From NCBI GenBank assembly GCA_000165345.1, contig CM000430.1, forward strand, positions 96,001 to 160,000: 64,000 nt of DNA, read 5' to 3'. Below are positions 1,965 through 15,255 of this stretch, piece by piece. Positions within the stretch are counted from its first letter, which is position 1. Each line of letters opens with the position of its first letter. A program made the translations under genes and the position numbers. The notes under the pieces are model-generated. The model did no database searches. It had not been told where the DNA came from and worked only from the letters and a program-made list of their open reading frames with translations.

Positions 1965-4900
1965 TTGNNAGGGTNAGCGAGTTNCGTTATTCGTTTNNNN
2001 NNNNNNNNNNNNNNNNNNNNNNNNNNNNNNNNNNNNNNNNNNNNNNNNNNNNNNNNNNNNNNNNNNNNNNNNNNNNNNNNNNNNNNNNNNNNNNNNATTT
2101 CATTCCAAAAATTATATCAATGGAAATTATATATTAATCATAAATATCTTCAAATTCAACAATTTCTCAATTCTAATATATGTAGAAATATTATTATAGA
2201 ATTAAGAAATTTATCAAAAGAAACAAAATTTACTATACAAATTTCTGATTTATTATATCGTAATTTTATTATGAGAAGAATATTAAATGGAATAATATAT
2301 TGGAAATTTCAAAGTCAATATCAAAAAGAATGTAGAAATAAATATCAATTACTTGAAAATTATATTAATAAAAAATTAATTAATAAAATATTTATTAATT
2401 GGAAAAAAGAATGTCAAGATTATATTATTTATTATAAATTTATTAAAAGTATACAATTACCAATCAAAAAAAGAGTTTTTATTATTTTTAAAGGTAATTA
2501 TATATTCAATAAATATAATTATAATTGTATTCGAATATTTTTTATATCATGGAATTCTTTAACAAATAAAAAAAGAATATTAAAAGAAAAATGTCAAAAT
2601 TTCTATCAATTTTATATTTTAAAAAGATTAATAGAAAGAGTATTTAAACAATGGAGAATAAAATATTATCAGAAATTGAATATATATCAATTTTATGATA
2701 ATATTATTATTAAAAAACCTATGAAAACAATTTTTTATTATTGGAATAATAAAACAATTCAAAGATTAAAAAATGAAAAAGAATTAACAACCAAAATAAT
2801 TAATAGAGAAAAAAAGGATTATTTAAGAATGATGATAATTATTTATAAAATGAATAAAATTTATTATCAAATCAATTTTGGAATTATTAAAAGAATATTT
2901 AATATATGGAAGAAATTATATATGATTGAAAAATTTCATAGAATGAAATTATTAAAACAATATATAATATATTGGAGACATTATTCAATAAAAAGAATAA
3001 TATATAGAGATAAGATTAATATATTTATACAAGAAAGATCAAAAAGATTAATAGAAGAATATTATATAAGAATGATTATATTATATAGAAAAAGAATACA
3101 AATAAAAGAAAAATATGAATATATAAGAAATAGAATAAGAAATAGAAATTTATTAAAAATTATTCAAATATGGAAACAAAGATTTAATAATAGAATAAAG
3201 AAAAAGAATGATTATCAATATTTATTAATAATACATAATAATTATATATTAAAGATGTCAATTCGAATTTGGAAGGAGAGAATGTTAAAAGAGGAAAGAT
3301 ATAGATTAATAATCAATCAAGAAGAAATGAAAAGAATATATAATTTAAAGAGTAGAATATTAAATTATTGGAGAAAAATTTGGAAACCACATCATTATAT
3401 AAAAGTATCAAATGAATTAATAAAGATATTGAATAGAATAATAATACATAATTCATTTCATAAATTATTAAGAATAACATTTTATTCATATAAATATAAT
3501 AAAGATGAGGATAAGAATTGGATTAATATGATAAGAATGAATAATAATATAATAATAAATAAAAGAATTGGATATAGTTATTATATGGAATGTAGATGTA
3601 CTAGTAATGAATTAATAAGAGGATGTTTATTATTAAAAGATAATAATTTATGGATAATGAATATATTATCAAAAATACAAGAAATAAGAAATAATACAAT
3701 ATATGATATGTTATTAAGAATGAGAGAATATATAAGAATAAGAAAGAATTATGAGAAAGGTATAAATGATTTGGAGAAGAATTTAAGAAGAATAATATTA
3801 TCAAGAGTTTGGATAGAGATGATTAATAATATAGAAAGAATATGGATGATAGGAAGATTAATAATAATAATAAGAAATAGAAGAGAGGAGAGAATAAAGA
3901 GACAAGTATTAGTAAGATGGGTGAATAAATATAATGAGAATTATAGGAATAAATGTATAATAGAATATATGAGAAGAATATATGGTAATACAATAAAGAT
4001 TAAATGTTATTTAATTTGGTCAATAAAATTTGAGATAATAAAAAAGAAGAAGAGATTAAAAGAAAGATATGAGAAATATTTAAGAGTTTATATAATAGAA
4101 TATACAATAAGAAGAATGAATGAATATTATTTATATAATAAATGGTTAATATGGTGTAAGAAAGCTTATGATAGAATAGAATGGGTACATGATTTTAGAT
4201 TAAAATCGATATTATTTATAAATTGGAGAAGATATTCAAAAAAGCAGAAAATATTAAGGGATGAATTATATATATTATATAATAAAGTAAAGATAAGAAA
4301 GAAAGGATATATATTAATAGAATGGGTGAATAGGATAAGAATATTATTAAGAATGAGAAATGATGCTGAGAATTATTATTTGAATAATATAATATATAGA
4401 AGAAGATTTAAAGATTGTTTTAATATATGGAGAGGATTATCATTAAGATTAAGAAATCAAAAGAAGAAGATAATGGATTATTTGGAGAATAAGAATAAGA
4501 ATTTGAAGATTACATGTTTTAAACTTTGGAGATTTTTTATTTATTATAGAAAGACAAGGAATTCAAGATTTGAGAAGATAACAAATATAATAAGATTGAA
4601 TCATTTAAATATGATGGTTTATAGAATATTTTATTCATGGAAATTAAAGATGATAGAATTAAGATCTTTAAAGAATTCAATATTTTCATTTTGGAATTCT
4701 GGTATGGGTTTGGAGATGGAGGAGAGTGGATTGGGAGTGGAGGATGGTGAGAGGGGAGGAAGAAGAGGGAGAGGAGTTGGAGGAGAAGGAAGGGTTGGAG
4801 GAAGAGGAAGGGGAGGGATGGGAGGAGAAATGGAAAGGGGAGGGATGGGAGGAGAAATGGAAAGGGGAGAAATGGTAAGAGGAGAAATGGTAAGAGGAGA

Positions 4901-6350
4901 AATGATAAGAGGAGAAATAGAAAGAAGAAGCGAAATAAAAGAAAGAAGAGAGATGAACGAGCTCATTTCTCCATCAACTTTTAATTCTCCTTCTCAATAC
5001 TCTTTGGAGTTTTCAGTGGATTCACCTTCATTTAAGTTAAAAGAGGAGGAGGATGGTGTAGGGGAGGAAGATTTAGATAATGGAGAGAAAAGAAGAAAAG
5101 GAAAGGGGGAGAAAAAAGATGTTGAGAGAAAGGATTATGGATTCATGAGTATATTTTCATCAAGTGGAAATTCTTCATTAGAGTTAGTATCTCAAAGGTT
5201 GGAATCAACACGTCAAGATGATTTGAGAGGTGTAGTTAAAGAAAGAGAAATTCAAGGTCAAGCAAGGAATAATTATGGGAATTCATCTCCATCATCTACT
5301 CGTGAATATGTTAATAGGTTACTTTCCTCTTCTTCTTCTTCTTCTTCTTTGTCTGCTTTATCCGATATTTCAGAAAAAGTTTCAATAAAAGACTCTCCAT
5401 ATACTAATTCCAAGACAAAAAGATCTCATAATTCTTATTCAAAAGCTAGAAGATCATTTTCTCCTTTCCTTCAATATTCTGTGTCTTCTTCTTCTTCCTC
5501 TTTACAGTCACTATCATATTCAGATGGTGACTTGGAGATTGATGAACTACATTCTGCAACAAAGTTAAAGATAAATAGAACTCGTAAGGATCAAAATTCG
5601 TTAGACTGGAATTCACCTTCATTATCTCCACAACAACCACCATCTTCATTATCTCTTCCTCCTCCACCATCTTCATTATCTCCTCCTCCACAAGTGACTT
5701 CATCATCTCTACAACCTTCATTATCTTCTTCACCGCCTCCAATATCTCGACAATCTCTATCTTTACCACAACAGCAATCTAATCCATCTTCACCTTCACT
5801 TCCACATCTATCTTTACCTCCTCCTCCTCCTCCACAATATTCGAGTTATAAATCTTCAAATTCAAGTAATAATGATTCAATGATAATAAATCGATCAAAT
5901 TTATCTTCAAAGTTACCTCTTCCATTTCCAATTCCTATTCAACAACAGCCACAATTACAAATGGTAAATCAGGATGTGAAACAATTGTATGATTCAAATT
6001 TCACTTCTTCTTCTTCTTCTTCTTCCTCTTATTTTTCCTCTGCTTTTTCACCCTCTTCTTACTCAAAGAAAATTACTGAAGATCCAAATTTATTATTAGT
6101 AAAACTTGATACTGATACAAATCAAACAATTAAAGATCTTCCTCAAGATCCTTATCATATCTCAAGTTCTAGTCCAATCTTTAAAACAATCAAGACTGAT
6201 TTAAACAATATTCCTAATCAAAACTTTAAAGATGACCAACAAATTGAGTCCAATATAAACATAAAACCCACTCATTCTCAAAACAATAATATATTCACTT
6301 CTTCTATTTCTTCCTCTTCATCCTCATCTTTCCCTTCTCAGTCTTCATAA
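1965..6350 (+). CDS. Giant Sfi1-like centrin-binding-repeat protein, 5' end lost in the assembly gap; C-terminal half is Gly/Glu/Arg and Ser/Pro low-complexity
   Basis: The 4.4 kb ORF runs through the N run; the track start is a TTG, so the real start is unknown. The N-terminal ~900 aa carry over 20 copies of a roughly 30-35-aa repeat, each ending in [FIL]xxW[KR] (FINWKKE, FISWNSL, FKQWRIK, FYYWNNK, FNIWKKL, IIYWRHY, IQIWKQR, IRIWKER, LNYWRKI …). This matches the Sfi1 repeat consensus as I remember it. The family call is from memory, not a search. Confidence 0.5.
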   Translation: MXGXASXVIRXXXXXXXXXXXXXXXXXXXXXXXXXXXXXXXXXXISFQKLYQWKLYINHKYLQIQQFLNSNICRNIIIELRNLSKETKFTIQISDLLYRNFIMRRILNGIIYWKFQSQYQKECRNKYQLLENYINKKLINKIFINWKKECQDYIIYYKFIKSIQLPIKKRVFIIFKGNYIFNKYNYNCIRIFFISWNSLTNKKRILKEKCQNFYQFYILKRLIERVFKQWRIKYYQKLNIYQFYDNIIIKKPMKTIFYYWNNKTIQRLKNEKELTTKIINREKKDYLRMMIIIYKMNKIYYQINFGIIKRIFNIWKKLYMIEKFHRMKLLKQYIIYWRHYSIKRIIYRDKINIFIQERSKRLIEEYYIRMIILYRKRIQIKEKYEYIRNRIRNRNLLKIIQIWKQRFNNRIKKKNDYQYLLIIHNNYILKMSIRIWKERMLKEERYRLIINQEEMKRIYNLKSRILNYWRKIWKPHHYIKVSNELIKILNRIIIHNSFHKLLRITFYSYKYNKDEDKNWINMIRMNNNIIINKRIGYSYYMECRCTSNELIRGCLLLKDNNLWIMNILSKIQEIRNNTIYDMLLRMREYIRIRKNYEKGINDLEKNLRRIILSRVWIEMINNIERIWMIGRLIIIIRNRREERIKRQVLVRWVNKYNENYRNKCIIEYMRRIYGNTIKIKCYLIWSIKFEIIKKKKRLKERYEKYLRVYIIEYTIRRMNEYYLYNKWLIWCKKAYDRIEWVHDFRLKSILFINWRRYSKKQKILRDELYILYNKVKIRKKGYILIEWVNRIRILLRMRNDAENYYLNNIIYRRRFKDCFNIWRGLSLRLRNQKKKIMDYLENKNKNLKITCFKLWRFFIYYRKTRNSRFEKITNIIRLNHLNMMVYRIFYSWKLKMIELRSLKNSIFSFWNSGMGLEMEESGLGVEDGERGGRRGRGVGGEGRVGGRGRGGMGGEMERGGMGGEMERGEMVRGEMVRGEMIRGEIERRSEIKERREMNELISPSTFNSPSQYSLEFSVDSPSFKLKEEEDGVGEEDLDNGEKRRKGKGEKKDVERKDYGFMSIFSSSGNSSLELVSQRLESTRQDDLRGVVKEREIQGQARNNYGNSSPSSTREYVNRLLSSSSSSSSLSALSDISEKVSIKDSPYTNSKTKRSHNSYSKARRSFSPFLQYSVSSSSSSLQSLSYSDGDLEIDELHSATKLKINRTRKDQNSLDWNSPSLSPQQPPSSLSLPPPPSSLSPPPQVTSSSLQPSLSSSPPPISRQSLSLPQQQSNPSSPSLPHLSLPPPPPPQYSSYKSSNSSNNDSMIINRSNLSSKLPLPFPIPIQQQPQLQMVNQDVKQLYDSNFTSSSSSSSSYFSSAFSPSSYSKKITEDPNLLLVKLDTDTNQTIKDLPQDPYHISSSSPIFKTIKTDLNNIPNQNFKDDQQIESNINIKPTHSQNNNIFTSSISSSSSSSFPSQSS
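1997..2096. other. Assembly gap (run of N, with further ambiguous bases at 1969-1984)
   Basis: An explicit N run is present in the sequence. It removes the 5' end and promoter of the downstream gene. Confidence 0.95.
4700..4930 (+). repeat. In-frame purine-only (GA-rich) tandem repeats (two ~33-nt units, then four 15-nt GGAGAAATGGTAAGA units) encoding GGEMERG / GEMVRGEM
   Basis: Direct repeats are visible in the sequence. There is strong strand asymmetry (purines on the coding strand). Confidence 0.8.
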
Positions 6351-6734: not shown

Positions 6735-6893
6735 AAGACAAAGTAAAGCGAGACAAAGCAAAGCAAGACGACAAAGCAAAGCAAGAAGACAAAGCAAAGC
6801 AAGACAAGGTAAAACTAGGCCAAGTTTATTTTAATTTTATCCGTATGCAATTATTATTACTGCTATTACTATTACTATTATTATTACTATTTT
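6735..6893 (+). repeat. Intergenic low-complexity repeats: (ACAAAGCAAAGCAAGA)n purine tract followed by (TTA/TAT)n
   Basis: Direct repeats are visible. The two track ORFs here (6649..6834, 6671..6895) are repeat artefacts. Confidence 0.7.
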
Positions 6894-6999: not shown

Positions 7000-8415
7000 T
7001 CAAGCACTCATATCTAAAATAAATCCATACTTGACAGAATCAGGATCATTTAGTTTTCGAGGATCAATTTGAGCTCCAAATGTTGCTGAGATATTTTTTG
7101 TAAAATTATGAGTCAAAGAATATGCCATTTTTAAATTATTCATTACTTTAAATCTTAAATCAGTACTCTTCATATTATTAGTCATAGATCCAAAGGAAAT
7201 CTTACCTCCTATTGTATATTGAACTTTATCTGAAAATTTTGTTAAATAATTTTCATAATAAGTTTTTGATACTTTATTTTTGGTGATTAATCCTAATCCA
7301 TTATCTTCAATTTGTTGAATATTATCTTCATTATTATTTCCATTATTATTTTCAGTATTATAAGATATCATTAAGCCTAAAGTTAAATAATTTCTAACTA
7401 AATTGTTTAATATTAATCCTCCTGTAAATCCAGATAACTTATTATTTTGATGATTTGTATTAGTTTGTAATGATAAAACATAATTTGGTGTTAAAATAGA
7501 AATTGGACTTAATGTTGATGATCCTCCTATTCCTTCATATAAATCATTATTATCATTAGTATTATTATTATTACAAATCATACTATTCTTAAAACGTGAT
7601 CCAAAATTTTCTTTCTTATGTATTAAACCTTGATAATTAAATTGTTCATATCCTTGAGATCTTTCATTAATTGTATCTTTACAAGATCTCATAAATAAAG
7701 GTCCTTTAAGCATTAATCCCAACATTAATTTTAATGAATTCTTATTATTATTATTATGGGGTAAATTTATATTTGATGAAGATATCATTGATCCAAGACT
7801 TAAACTATTAATACAAGAAAATGGTCTTAAAGTTATTGTATTACTTAACATCATACCAATACTATCTTTATTTTCTTTATTAGATTTATTCAAACATCCT
7901 AATGTTTTTATTGTAGGAGATATTCTAAATCTTGATTGAATATATTCACCTTGAATATCTCCTCCAATTTCTAAACAACCTGATCCATTATTAGTATTAT
8001 TATATGATCCCAATGAATTTGTTAATTTTGGAAACCTTTCATATTTTGATGTTAAACTTATACCATAATATGGTTTTGTTTTTACTTCCATTATAGAAAT
8101 CCCATTCATATCCATTTTTGTTTCCATTTGTGATGAACATATATTCCATTTTAATGTTGAATTTCCATCCAATGAGAATATTTGTTTACTATTATTATTA
8201 CTATTATTTTCTCCACAACATCCATTTCCATCATTACAACATTTTGACTTATTTCCATTTTTTCCTCCATTAGAAGGTGTTGAAATATTATAACTAAATG
8301 AAGGATTCTTGCAAATACTTGTGAGATTTAACTCTAATAATTTATCTTTTTCTGTTGGATACTTGGACTTAAATAATCCAATTACTTCCTTATTAAAATC
8401 ACCAACTAGTACCAT
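7000..8415 (-). CDS. Eukaryotic beta-barrel porin (VDAC / Porin_3 family-like) with Asn-rich insertions
   Basis: ATG start at 8415. The N-terminus MVLVGDFNKEVIGLFKSKY resembles the VDAC N-helix (…YADLGKSARDVFTKGY). The C-terminus KVMNNLKMAYSLTHNFTKNISATFGAQIDPRKLNDPDSVKYGFILDMSA aligns by eye with human VDAC1 [48 protein letters not shown]. Alternating hydrophobic beta-strand patterning runs throughout. Family assignment is from memory, not a search. Confidence 0.5.
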   Translation of the reverse strand: MVLVGDFNKEVIGLFKSKYPTEKDKLLELNLTSICKNPSFSYNISTPSNGGKNGNKSKCCNDGNGCCGENNSNNNSKQIFSLDGNSTLKWNICSSQMETKMDMNGISIMEVKTKPYYGISLTSKYERFPKLTNSLGSYNNTNNGSGCLEIGGDIQGEYIQSRFRISPTIKTLGCLNKSNKENKDSIGMMLSNTITLRPFSCINSLSLGSMISSSNINLPHNNNNKNSLKLMLGLMLKGPLFMRSCKDTINERSQGYEQFNYQGLIHKKENFGSRFKNSMICNNNNTNDNNDLYEGIGGSSTLSPISILTPNYVLSLQTNTNHQNNKLSGFTGGLILNNLVRNYLTLGLMISYNTENNNGNNNEDNIQQIEDNGLGLITKNKVSKTYYENYLTKFSDKVQYTIGGKISFGSMTNNMKSTDLRFKVMNNLKMAYSLTHNFTKNISATFGAQIDPRKLNDPDSVKYGFILDMSA

Positions 8416-8866: not shown

Positions 8867-10003
8867 TTACTTTGATAATGTATTTGTTACAATATCTTCA
8901 ATTGTACTAAATACCTGCTTAATCATTTTACCTCCATTTTGATTACTCTTTTTATTATCATTTTTTTTATTATTTTCATCAACATCATCCTCCTTTTCTA
9001 AATCCTTTACTTCATCATTATTATTATTAGACTTCTTCTTTAATCCATCAAAAACATCATTAACCTTCTCTTCAACTCTTTCTAATAAACCCTTCTTTGC
9101 TAATACTCTCAAATTGGATGTATTATTATAATATACAATTTCTGGTGTTTTGATTGGTGATGCTGTATCATTATACCTTTTACCATCACTACTTATACTT
9201 GTTTCATTATATAATGGATTATTCTTAATATTTTTATCACGATTATTATCTTCATTTTCATCATCATCTTCTTCTTCATCCCTATCTTGTACTATAATTC
9301 TCTCATTACCACTCAAACCAGCTCTATTAAAACCTGTTAATGTTGGAAACCTTTGTAAATAATCACTTTCCCTATTCAATAAATTATTAACAGGATTGTT
9401 TCCTGATGAAGAAGTTTGATTTCTTTGCATTAAAGATTCATTAGAATTCTGTAAATCATTATTTTGATTTCCATTAGATAATATTCCATCTTGTAAATCA
9501 TTAATAAATCCAGGTGTCATATTTTCCATAGGAATCATTACATCCATCTTTCTTTCATTTGATTCAGATTCATTACCTAAATATCTAAAATATGGTCCAG
9601 GTAATGGAGCATATGGTAATGGTGAAACATATCCAACTGGTCGTGTAAATACTCCTCCTGGTCTAGAGGTTGTTCTTGTGTATGAATATGAATAATTATA
9701 TGGATATCCTGGCACTCCTGCATATGGATATTGATATGAATATGTATATGGATATTGATATGAATAAGTATATGAATATGGGTATTGATATTGATATGGA
9801 TATGAGTAATACACAGGTTGTTCTACAAAATATGGACGATCCACAAATACTGTTTGATCTCCTACATAGCCTCCTCTTCTATGTCCAAGTGATCTTACTT
9901 CAGTAGTAGAATTCTTTTCTTGTTTTTGAGACTTAACTACATTTCCCAAGCATGCCAATATTAATATTATAACTGTTGTATTTTTTAATGTAAACTTGAC
10001 CAT
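8867..10003 (-). CDS. Secreted tyrosine-rich repeat protein (YPYSYTYSYQ-type repeats), followed by Asn/Asp/Glu-rich tail
   Basis: ATG start at 10003. Signal-peptide-like N-terminus (TTVIILILACLGNVVKS). Residues ~60-110 are almost entirely Y/P/S/T/Q (YYSYPYQYQYPYSYTYSYQYPYTYSYQYPYAGVPGYPYNYSYSY). Confidence 0.5.
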   Translation of the reverse strand: MVKFTLKNTTVIILILACLGNVVKSQKQEKNSTTEVRSLGHRRGGYVGDQTVFVDRPYFVEQPVYYSYPYQYQYPYSYTYSYQYPYTYSYQYPYAGVPGYPYNYSYSYTRTTSRPGGVFTRPVGYVSPLPYAPLPGPYFRYLGNESESNERKMDVMIPMENMTPGFINDLQDGILSNGNQNNDLQNSNESLMQRNQTSSSGNNPVNNLLNRESDYLQRFPTLTGFNRAGLSGNERIIVQDRDEEEDDDENEDNNRDKNIKNNPLYNETSISSDGKRYNDTASPIKTPEIVYYNNTSNLRVLAKKGLLERVEEKVNDVFDGLKKKSNNNNDEVKDLEKEDDVDENNKKNDNKKSNQNGGKMIKQVFSTIEDIVTNTLSK

Positions 10004-14328: not shown

Positions 14329-15255
14329 TTAAGATTTAACTTTGTTTTTACCAGAAACATTTAATCCAATAATAGTCTTGAAAGAATCATAAACCCACCA
14401 TTGCATCCCTGTTAATGTACCAATCATAATAATTCTTGTGCCCAAACCTGCTGTACACAAGTTCTTTATACCGATTTCTCTAGTCATAGATAATACGTTA
14501 ATTCTTTTGGAGCTATTATATGCAGCTTTTCCAAGCTGAGAAATTATAGTATCAGCTGGGTGTGATACAATAGCGCATATAATTCCAGATAAATAGCCTG
14601 ATAAAAATGTTATACCAAGCCTTGATTTCTTACTATATGATTCTTTAGGTTTAGTAAAGACTTTATCATAAAACATTTGATTAATTCTCTCAAAAAAATA
14701 GAATTTTGCCATTGTATAAGGAATTTGACGATACCATAAAGGCTTAATACTTCCAAAAGGAAATTTTGTTTCTGATCTATATTTATACATATTACTAGCT
14801 GATTTTAGAAAAGAGTTTGGTAATAAATCTGGCCTTGTACAAGTTTGCATTTTTATTTTTATCATTTCCATTGGACATAATGCTATGTCTGCAAAAAATT
14901 CTGCTGTTGCTGATGCTCCAAGCCAAATCAATCCTTTATGAGATTCTTTATTTGTTGTTAGAATCTTGCTAGAATATAAATCTTTAAAGTATTCATACAA
15001 GCCATATTTTAACGCACCTTGTGCTGAATAACCAATTAAAGTTGGTGCCCATCCTAATCTCAGTGCCTTTACTCCTTCAAATCTTATTATTTTAGATAAA
15101 GTTGGAACTAAGCTCCTAAATTTATCTGGGTAAACTTGTATTCTGCATTTAGCTACATCTATTGGAACAATTGCGGTGTGGGTTAGACCACAACTTAATG
15201 CTCCACCTAATGCACAGTTTAAGTAATAGTTTACATTTCTTTTCTTTTCTTTCAT
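14329..15255 (-). CDS. Mitochondrial carrier family protein, phosphate-carrier (PiC/Mir1)-like
   Basis: The track ORF starts at a GTG (15264); the first ATG is 15255..15253 (MKEKKRNVNYYLNCALGGALSCGLTHTAIVPIDVAKCRIQV, compare yeast Mir1 …[28 protein letters not shown]). Three Px[DE]xx[KR] carrier signatures are present (PIDVAKCRIQ, PMEMIKIKMQ, PADTIISQLGK). There are six TM-like helices. Confidence 0.7.
   Translation of the reverse strand: MKEKKRNVNYYLNCALGGALSCGLTHTAIVPIDVAKCRIQVYPDKFRSLVPTLSKIIRFEGVKALRLGWAPTLIGYSAQGALKYGLYEYFKDLYSSKILTTNKESHKGLIWLGASATAEFFADIALCPMEMIKIKMQTCTRPDLLPNSFLKSASNMYKYRSETKFPFGSIKPLWYRQIPYTMAKFYFFERINQMFYDKVFTKPKESYSKKSRLGITFLSGYLSGIICAIVSHPADTIISQLGKAAYNSSKRINVLSMTREIGIKNLCTAGLGTRIIMIGTLTGMQWWVYDSFKTIIGLNVSGKNKVKS

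Follow-up and report, generated by a model that had tools for sequence, protein, structure and literature searches.

The DNA considered here is a window of 64,000 nucleotides (NCBI GenBank assembly GCA_000165345.1, contig CM000430.1, positions 96,001 to 160,000 of the forward strand; positions below are counted from its first letter), and the locus studied within it lies on chromosome 2 of Cryptosporidium parvum. It is occupied by a minus-strand open reading frame (ORF) at 7000..8415, which very probably encodes Cryptosporidium's ortholog of VDAC (voltage-dependent anion channel), i.e., a 19-strand beta-barrel with an N-terminal helix that would serve as the general diffusion pore of the mitosome outer membrane. 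The ORF runs uninterrupted through 471 codons from ATG to stop and forms a complete, single-exon coding sequence, with no ORF of 60 or more residues on the opposite strand inside 7000..8415. At the composition of the window (A+T 72%), 471 stop-free codons are expected by chance with p = 3e-18, or about 4e-13 across all start positions. The reading frame had been proposed in an earlier note made from the letters of the window; it proves intact and matches a known protein, the product being 100% identical to C. parvum Iowa II EAK88890.1 (UniProt Q5CU34, CPATCC_000904), for which the locus name is probably cgd2_480. The Q5CU34 record and every ortholog record found, from at least 12 Cryptosporidium species, are labelled "hypothetical" or "uncharacterized." Full-text searches of the literature returned no paper naming a Cryptosporidium VDAC, Q5CU34, CMU_009930, or cgd2_480.

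The coding sequence and the parts of its product map on the window as follows, from the N-terminus onward (aa, amino acid residues; AF2, AlphaFold model; pLDDT, predicted local distance difference test; sources of evidence in brackets).

7000..8415, minus strand: complete single-exon coding sequence of the putative VDAC ortholog, 471 aa, stop codon at 7000-7002 (ORF and identity to Q5CU34)
8371..8406, minus strand: amphipathic helix, aa 4-15, placed right at the N-terminus like the VDAC helix and without a Tom40-type extension (AF2 and alignment with alveolate VDACs)
8275..8343, minus strand: strands beta1-beta2, aa 25-47 (AF2, strand mapping)
8170..8274, minus strand: insertion in loop beta2-beta3, aa 48-82, 35 aa versus 6 in human VDAC1, low pLDDT (alignment, AF2)
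8215..8241, minus strand: CC-x5-CC motif CCNDGNGCC, aa 59-67, inside the beta2-beta3 insertion, confined to the parvum/meleagridis/ubiquitum/canis clade (ortholog alignment)
8035..8169, minus strand: strands beta3-beta6, aa 83-127 (AF2, strand mapping)
7981..8034, minus strand: insertion in loop beta6-beta7, aa 128-145 (alignment, AF2)
7918..7980, minus strand: strands beta7-beta8, aa 146-166 (AF2, strand mapping)
7861..7917, minus strand: loop beta8-beta9, aa 167-185, 19 aa versus 5 in human VDAC1 (AF2, strand mapping)
7699..7860, minus strand: strands beta9-beta11, aa 186-239, with an 11-aa beta10-beta11 loop (AF2, strand mapping)
7486..7698, minus strand: largest insertion, loop beta11-beta12, aa 240-310, 71 aa versus 2 in human VDAC1, Asn-rich, pLDDT 31-48 (alignment, AF2)
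7357..7485, minus strand: strands beta12-beta14, aa 311-353 (AF2, strand mapping)
7225..7356, minus strand: insertion in loop beta14-beta15, aa 354-397, 44 aa, of which aa 386-397 are predicted to form a short helix (alignment, AF2)
7009..7224, minus strand: strands beta15-beta19, aa 398-469, where conservation is highest and to which the Porin_3 match is confined (Pfam, AF2, HMM)
7114..7149, minus strand: porin motif KVMNNLKMAYSL, aa 423-434, beta16-beta17, common to Plasmodium VDAC KISNDTKVALSL and human VDAC1 (conserved motif)
7009..7032, minus strand: mitochondrial beta-signal KYGFILDM, aa 462-469, last strand, of the form polar-x-G-x-x-hydrophobic-x-hydrophobic (motif)

Relationship to alveolate VDACs

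The sole Pfam match of the 471-aa protein is to Porin_3 (PF01459), over 65 C-terminal residues (aa 396-460), at 21.9 bits; the family's gathering cut-off, 28.4 bits, is a database convention and not a biological property. A weak Porin_3 match is likewise found in six of ten orthologs, with no rival family. A best match in another family had been named in the earlier note as a sign against a VDAC-type barrel, and nothing besides Porin_3 is matched at E<=10. Since the single-sequence score falls under the cut-off, family membership must rest on profile-level evidence. A search of the PDB with the single sequence gave nothing useful.

An exhaustive search with a hidden Markov model (HMM) profile of the Cryptosporidium orthologs against 1.84 billion representative proteins yields 16 proteins at E<=1e-3, seven of them Cryptosporidium orthologs and nine of them proteins of 277-310 aa. 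All nine exceed the Porin_3 cut-off (36-74 bits), and those that carry a name are VDACs or porins, from Plasmodium, Eimeria, Vitrella, and Cardiosporidium. A homolog search started from a clean VDAC alignment returned mostly Plasmodium VDACs, and one started from a mixed alignment was swamped by low-complexity words and gained one sequence.

A profile made from Cryptosporidium sequences alone (13 species) and the alveolate VDAC profile align across 290 columns, each from end to end (hhalign, probability 99.7%, E 4e-27). The alveolate VDAC set in turn aligns over its full length with opisthokont VDAC (96%, E 2.8e-9) and partially with Tom40 (51%, E 1.6e-4). Direct hhalign comparison of Cryptosporidium with the opisthokont references is non-discriminating because it gives no signal; the alveolate VDACs and HMM scores discriminated instead. 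A VDAC HMM built from non-Cryptosporidium alveolate VDACs alone scored the sequences as follows.

Gastric Cryptosporidium orthologs: 144-153 bits, one end-to-end domain
C. parvum: 75.0 bits, E 1.7e-21 at proteome scale, three pieces, split by the insertions
Other intestinal species: 57-87 bits
Yeast Por1: 35 bits
Human VDAC1: 21 bits
Four Tom40s: 2-9 bits

Human TOM40 (PDB 7ck6_A) and human VDAC1 (PDB 8j0o_K), with identity confirmed, served as references, and the fly, N. crassa, and C. thermophilum Tom40 and yeast Por1 sequences were taken from PDB alignments. In a neighbour-joining tree of 271 well-occupied columns, Cryptosporidium and alveolate VDACs group together in 200 of 200 bootstraps. 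The protein thus has significant full-length homology to bona fide Porin_3 members and is predicted to be a barrel of that type, and the reading of the earlier note, a VDAC-type Porin_3 barrel, is borne out by profile-profile, HMM, tree, and N-terminal evidence.

Both termini, described in the earlier note as a VDAC-like N-helix and VDAC-like C-terminal strands, are found in the protein and keep the VDAC register. Starting at its first residue, the N-terminus MVLVGDFNKEVIGLFKSKYP matches the alveolate VDAC pattern MVLFKD..K....L.KDFP, and the joint alignment with alveolate VDACs stays colinear all the way from that residue (MVLxxDxxK....L.K.[FY]P..K) through the last strand (DSxK[YF]Gxx[LI]). 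The motif at aa 423-434 is in register with human VDAC1, with a relaxed core K[VI]xN[ND]....A.SL common to VDACs and Cryptosporidium proteins, and the last strand KYGFILDM aligns with KLGLGLEF of human VDAC1. The beta-signal, as K-Y-G-x-x-Hy-D-Hy ten residues from the C-terminus, is conserved in 14 of 14 Cryptosporidium orthologs, at the same position as in alveolate VDACs. The classical eukaryotic porin signature (a PROSITE-type pattern) is found in human VDAC1 but in none of 21 bona fide alveolate VDACs and none of 14 Cryptosporidium proteins; because the bona fide alveolate VDACs do not have it, the signature is uninformative in alveolates.

Among known systems, the VDACs of apicomplexans and chromerids (Toxoplasma gondii VDAC, PMC8572010; putative VDACs of Plasmodium, Eimeria, Vitrella, and Chromera) are the closest sequence family, with about 24% identity to the Cryptosporidium protein on the columns shared in the full-length hhalign match. 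They have in common with it the N-terminal signature MVLxKD..K....L.K.[FY]P..K from residue 1, the beta16-17 motif K[VI]xN[ND]...A.SL, and the C-terminal DSxK[YF]Gxx[LI] beta-signal. They are 277-310 aa long, whereas seven loops of the C. parvum protein have grown by about 176 low-complexity residues to give 471 aa, and this protein is far more divergent, reaching 75 bits with the family HMM and staying under the Pfam cut-off. They also act in a respiring mitochondrion, whereas the Cryptosporidium protein would reside in a genome-less mitosome.

When AlphaFold was given an alignment of Cryptosporidium sequences alone, the model (pLDDT 37) already showed a helix at the N-terminus and some 18 strands. 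An alignment of 35 sequences that took in alveolate VDACs gives a model with a predicted template modelling score of 0.64, a pLDDT of 85-93 in the core blocks, a helix at aa 4-15, and exactly 19 strands, where the earlier note had listed fewer than 19 strands as speaking for an unrelated protein. Confidence is low only at residues 50-78, 133-142, 178-181, 243-305, and 358-385, nearly all of which are insertions. Of the 19 strands, 18 can be matched one after another to beta1-beta19 of human VDAC1, given the strand boundaries of that protein, and beta9 is gapped in the alignment. The successive loops have the following lengths.

Cryptosporidium protein (predicted): 5, 35, 2, 2, 5, 18, 3, 19, 7, 11, 71, 6, 5, 44, 9, 4, 4, 10
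Human VDAC1: 4, 6, 4, 2, 6, 6, 2, 5, 3, 7, 2, 3, 3, 6, 3, 3, 2, 9

Foldseek ranks 1-8 are all VDAC structures, with target-normalised template modelling (TM) scores of 0.73-0.81, ahead of Tom40 (0.61-0.73) and Mdm10 (0.69). On its modelled fold the protein clearly belongs to the superfamily of mitochondrial 19-strand porins, within which VDAC and Tom40 are hardly separable by fold alone. The 19-strand barrel and N-terminal helix of human and mouse VDAC1 (3EMN, 2JK4) and yeast Por1 (9JVQ) recur in the Cryptosporidium model, and the 283 aa of human VDAC1 compare with a Cryptosporidium core of 295 aa. These proteins differ from it in that they lack the large loop insertions, show only 13-16% structure-based identity with it, and have no direct significant sequence-profile match to it.

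Several points weigh against the assignment to VDAC. The C. parvum protein lies below the Porin_3 cut-off (21.9 vs 28.4 bits), and so does the compact C. serpentis ortholog, which scores 21.8 bits even though its residues 5-324 align with positions 6-264 of the 271 in Porin_3. PDB searches with the Cryptosporidium-only profile find nothing, and the same profile has no significant direct hhalign match to opisthokont VDAC or to Tom40 (probability <=3.6% for the latter), so the tie to canonical VDAC is transitive, via the alveolate VDACs. The Cryptosporidium-only AlphaFold model is too poor to use, and the fold of the good model is partly inherited, because its alignment held true VDACs. The main gap is in the Tom40 comparison set, which is made up of opisthokont sequences only.

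Loop insertions and alternative readings

About 176 residues (Asn 21%, Ser 11%) have no counterpart in the VDAC references, in agreement with the proposal of the earlier note that the 471-aa length comes from Asn/Ser-rich inserts. These insertions make up 37% of the protein and enlarge seven inter-strand loops; a 12-bp tandem repeat at 7320-7361 overlaps the start of the beta14-beta15 insertion. Five large insertions (beta2-3, 6-7, 8-9, 10-11, and 14-15) are all in even-to-odd loops and therefore on one barrel face, and the 71-residue beta11-12 insertion is on the opposite one. If the C-terminus of VDAC faces the intermembrane space, in line with the literature on VDAC1 topology, the group of five loops would be cytosolic. 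The positions of the insertions are common to the intestinal species, and their composition tracks genome GC content, with Asn making up 12-15% of the protein in parvum-like species; in the C. canis lineage it accounts for 5-8%, and the loops there are rich in Gly and Ser. Such a pattern is what low-complexity expansion driven by slippage usually leaves.

C. serpentis, C. muris (CMU_009930), and C. andersoni (cand_008370), all of them gastric, have compact orthologs of 339-341 aa. The order proteasome subunit, carrier, TBPIP/Hop2, further genes, porin, and a large gene on the opposite strand is kept in C. ryanae and C. muris, and because gene order is conserved, the 341-aa gastric gene is the positional ortholog of the 471-aa gene. 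In comparison with C. meleagridis, the barrel core has a ratio of non-synonymous to synonymous substitution rates (dN/dS) of 0.089, with 94% amino-acid identity and 2 gap columns, and the insertions a dN/dS of 0.273, with 76% identity and 18 gap columns. The barrel core of the intestinal species is thus intact and under strong purifying selection, and the insertions evolve fast. Gastric species appear to have a near-canonical VDAC, and intestinal species with reduced mitosomes an inflated, more divergent form. Gastric species retain the tricarboxylic acid cycle and a full ATP synthase, together with a respiratory chain that is close to conventional, and C. ubiquitum, in which an ortholog is also present, has lost the whole electron transport chain (PMC5146892).

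The CC-x5-CC motif, with three to four of its Cys, is kept in C. parvum, C. meleagridis, chipmunk genotype I, C. ubiquitum, C. canis, and the ortholog P0006, and is not present in C. felis, C. bovis/ryanae, or the gastric species. It could be an acylation or metal-binding site.

It is unlikely that this descendant of VDAC is no longer mainly a metabolite pore. In the intestinal species its inflated loops, including CC-x5-CC, might have made of it a platform for docking or tethering, for instance at contacts of the mitosome with the endoplasmic reticulum (ER) or the nuclear envelope, or the channel might be partly degenerate, because metabolite flux into a reduced mitosome is small. Consistent with such a change of use, intestinal orthologs reach about half the gastric VDAC HMM score (57-87 vs 144-153 bits), more than a third of the protein (37%) is insertion, the Cys-pair motif is conserved in one clade, and the positions of the insertions are kept across species despite the change in composition, with a dN/dS of 0.27 and not about 1. 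Depletion of Toxoplasma VDAC disturbs mainly mitochondrial and ER morphology and contacts, and not metabolism (PMC8572010), and the gene is retained even in C. ubiquitum with its electron transport chain wholly lost (PMC5146892). However, purifying selection on the barrel core is strong (dN/dS 0.089, 94% identity to C. meleagridis), the 19 strands, N-helix, and beta-signal are all kept, GC-tracking low-complexity Asn/Ser/Gly loops are typical neutral expansions in apicomplexan proteins, and ATP and phosphate still need a pore to reach the retained inner-membrane carriers (PMC7730227).

It likewise seems improbable that the loop expansions of the intestinal-species VDAC, conserved in position, are functional as a platform for organelle tethering or enzyme docking or as a lipidated or metal-binding site, evolved with the reduction of the mitochondrion to a mitosome. 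Among the loops involved would be the 71-residue one on the opposite face and the one with CC-x5-CC on the presumed cytosolic face. If true, functional loops would represent a repurposing of VDAC tied to organelle reduction.

Far less credible than either is that the protein is the Cryptosporidium Tom40, i.e., the protein-import pore of the TOM complex. Tom40 and VDAC have the Porin_3 family and the 19-strand fold in common, the beta-signal KYGFILDM is similar to KFGFMMHI of Plasmodium Tom40 (PMC3045335), and the direct comparison covered opisthokont Tom40s only. Against this stand the matches of the exhaustive profile search, all of which outside Cryptosporidium are VDAC-type, with Tom40 absent from the matches at E<=1e-3 in 1.84 billion proteins. 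A Tom40 HMM gives 3.8 bits for C. parvum and 11.0 bits for the best Cryptosporidium ortholog, compared with 445-518 bits for the Tom40s themselves and with 57-153 bits for Cryptosporidium orthologs and the alveolate VDAC HMM. In the tree, Tom40 stands apart from all other sequences in 200 of 200 bootstraps and groups with Cryptosporidium in 0 of 200. The Tom40s (human 7CK6, fly 9ETM, N. crassa 5O8O, C. thermophilum 9I6B) have an N-terminal extension and an NPGxxE motif, present in four of four as [LP/LE/LS]NPG[TL]xE ahead of the barrel, whereas the Cryptosporidium protein has neither: NPG occurs nowhere in its 471 aa, and its VDAC-type helix lies at the extreme N-terminus, with residue 1 aligned to residue 1 of alveolate VDACs. 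Moreover, a separate C. parvum Tom40 is treated as known, being listed with Sam50 among known sequences (PMC4339806). Profile-profile comparison, HMM scores, tree, and N-terminal architecture together indicate that the question of VDAC versus Tom40 settles on VDAC.

A chance or compositional likeness, by which the protein would be an unrelated low-complexity, beta-rich protein, an Mdm10-like barrel, or a lineage-specific barrel such as Entamoeba MBOMP30, is scarcely conceivable given the colinear profile-profile match over the full length (E 4e-27), the end-to-end match of gastric orthologs, with short insertions only, to the VDAC HMM (144-153 bits), the fact that these are positional orthologs, and zero matches to Mdm10 or any other Pfam family at E<=10. 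Fungal Mdm10 (7BTX/7BTY) differs in that the sequence of its family is unmatched by the Cryptosporidium protein. An Mdm10-like identity was rejected for the same reason, the Mdm10 family profile being unmatched in the Pfam search. Mdm10 is part of the ERMES/SAM systems, which are not known to have been described from Apicomplexa.

Neighbouring genes and proposed role in the mitosome

A nearby gene had been pointed out in the earlier note as a PiC-type carrier, and this is confirmed.

14329..15255, minus strand: neighbouring mitochondrial-carrier gene, the published putative phosphate carrier Cgd2_520 / Q5CU30, context only (three Mito_carr repeats, E 7e-35)

The carrier lies 5.9 kb from the porin, and between them are three unrelated genes, for a secreted Tyr-rich protein, a BRCT protein, and TBPIP/Hop2. 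A functional clustering of porin and phosphate carrier was considered and rejected on account of these intervening genes; their proximity has no evident functional meaning and reflects ordinary conserved eukaryotic gene order. Directly upstream of the porin, 8867-10003 (minus strand) encodes a 378-aa protein with a signal peptide and Tyr/Pro-rich YPYxYSY repeats, for which the coding DNA is a tandem repeat at 9722-9804; Pfam gives no match for this protein, and the C. hominis annotation reads "putative signal peptide protein." The interval from the BRCT-like gene to the porin holds two small genes (268 and 158 aa) in C. muris (L003 6536-8858), and one gene each in C. parvum and C. ryanae (378 and 348 aa), which is a local difference where synteny is otherwise conserved.

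On the other side, just downstream of the porin stop codon, the intergenic stretch contains four copies of an 18-bp tandem repeat, GACAAAGCAAAGCAAGAC, at 6737-6805 and a TATTAC/TATTAT repeat at 6852-6891, and these repeats give rise to spurious short plus-strand ORFs. The large plus-strand ORF ending at 6350 contains an assembly gap (100 N at 1997-2096, scattered N at 1968-1984); its ortholog in other Cryptosporidium species has 2080-2304 aa and lies on the strand opposite to the porin gene. Its coding region at 2000-5000 has a GC content of 13-20% and a GC skew of up to +0.83, with a K/I/R/N-rich repetitive stretch followed by G/E/R-rich tandem repeats of 15-30 bp at 4750-4950.

As for the role of the VDAC ortholog, its precursor would be made in the cytosol and imported via TOM, and its beta-signal would be recognised by the SAM/Sam50 machinery. 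The 19-strand barrel would then be inserted into the outer membrane of the mitosome, where its N-terminal helix would line the pore. In Toxoplasma, VDAC has been validated as an outer-membrane porin (PMC8572010). A pore of this kind would give non-specific passage to ATP/ADP, phosphate, amino acids, and ions. Eight inner-membrane carriers have been found in C. parvum, including an ADP/ATP carrier and the phosphate carrier Cgd2_520 (PMC7730227). Solutes entering through the pore could reach such carriers (CpAAC, Cgd2_520, and others), which would supply iron-sulphur (Fe-S) cluster and ubiquinone metabolism. Given the phenotype of VDAC depletion in Toxoplasma (PMC8572010), the protein may also have a secondary role at organelle contacts. 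For C. parvum there is a hyperLOPIT spatial proteome that includes a mitosome cluster, as cited in PMC12691609.

The outer-membrane transport repertoire of mitosomes is poorly defined. VDAC is not detectable in those of Giardia and Entamoeba, where metabolite passage is ascribed to Tom40 or to lineage-specific barrels (PMC3044749, PMC4339806, PMC9796589). Entamoeba MBOMP30 is likewise a beta-barrel of the mitosome outer membrane and a proposed metabolite route, but it is a lineage-specific barrel of an organism without detectable VDAC (PMC4339806), whereas the Cryptosporidium protein would be a true VDAC ortholog. Such a VDAC appears to be retained in all 14 orthologs examined, including that of C. 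ubiquitum, and would offer ATP, phosphate, and Fe-S precursors a concrete way to the known inner-membrane carriers. The assignment would correct a "hypothetical protein" annotation across at least 12 species and provide a candidate outer-membrane marker for the mitosome. The contrast of a compact gastric form with an intestinal one inflated in its loops runs parallel to the progressive organelle reduction described in the literature (PMC5146892), and makes the gene a small, tractable case of relaxing constraint on a conserved barrel, with no new mechanism. Divergent and until now unannotated, the protein belongs to a well-known family, and as such adds to the parts list of the mitosome without being mechanistically new.

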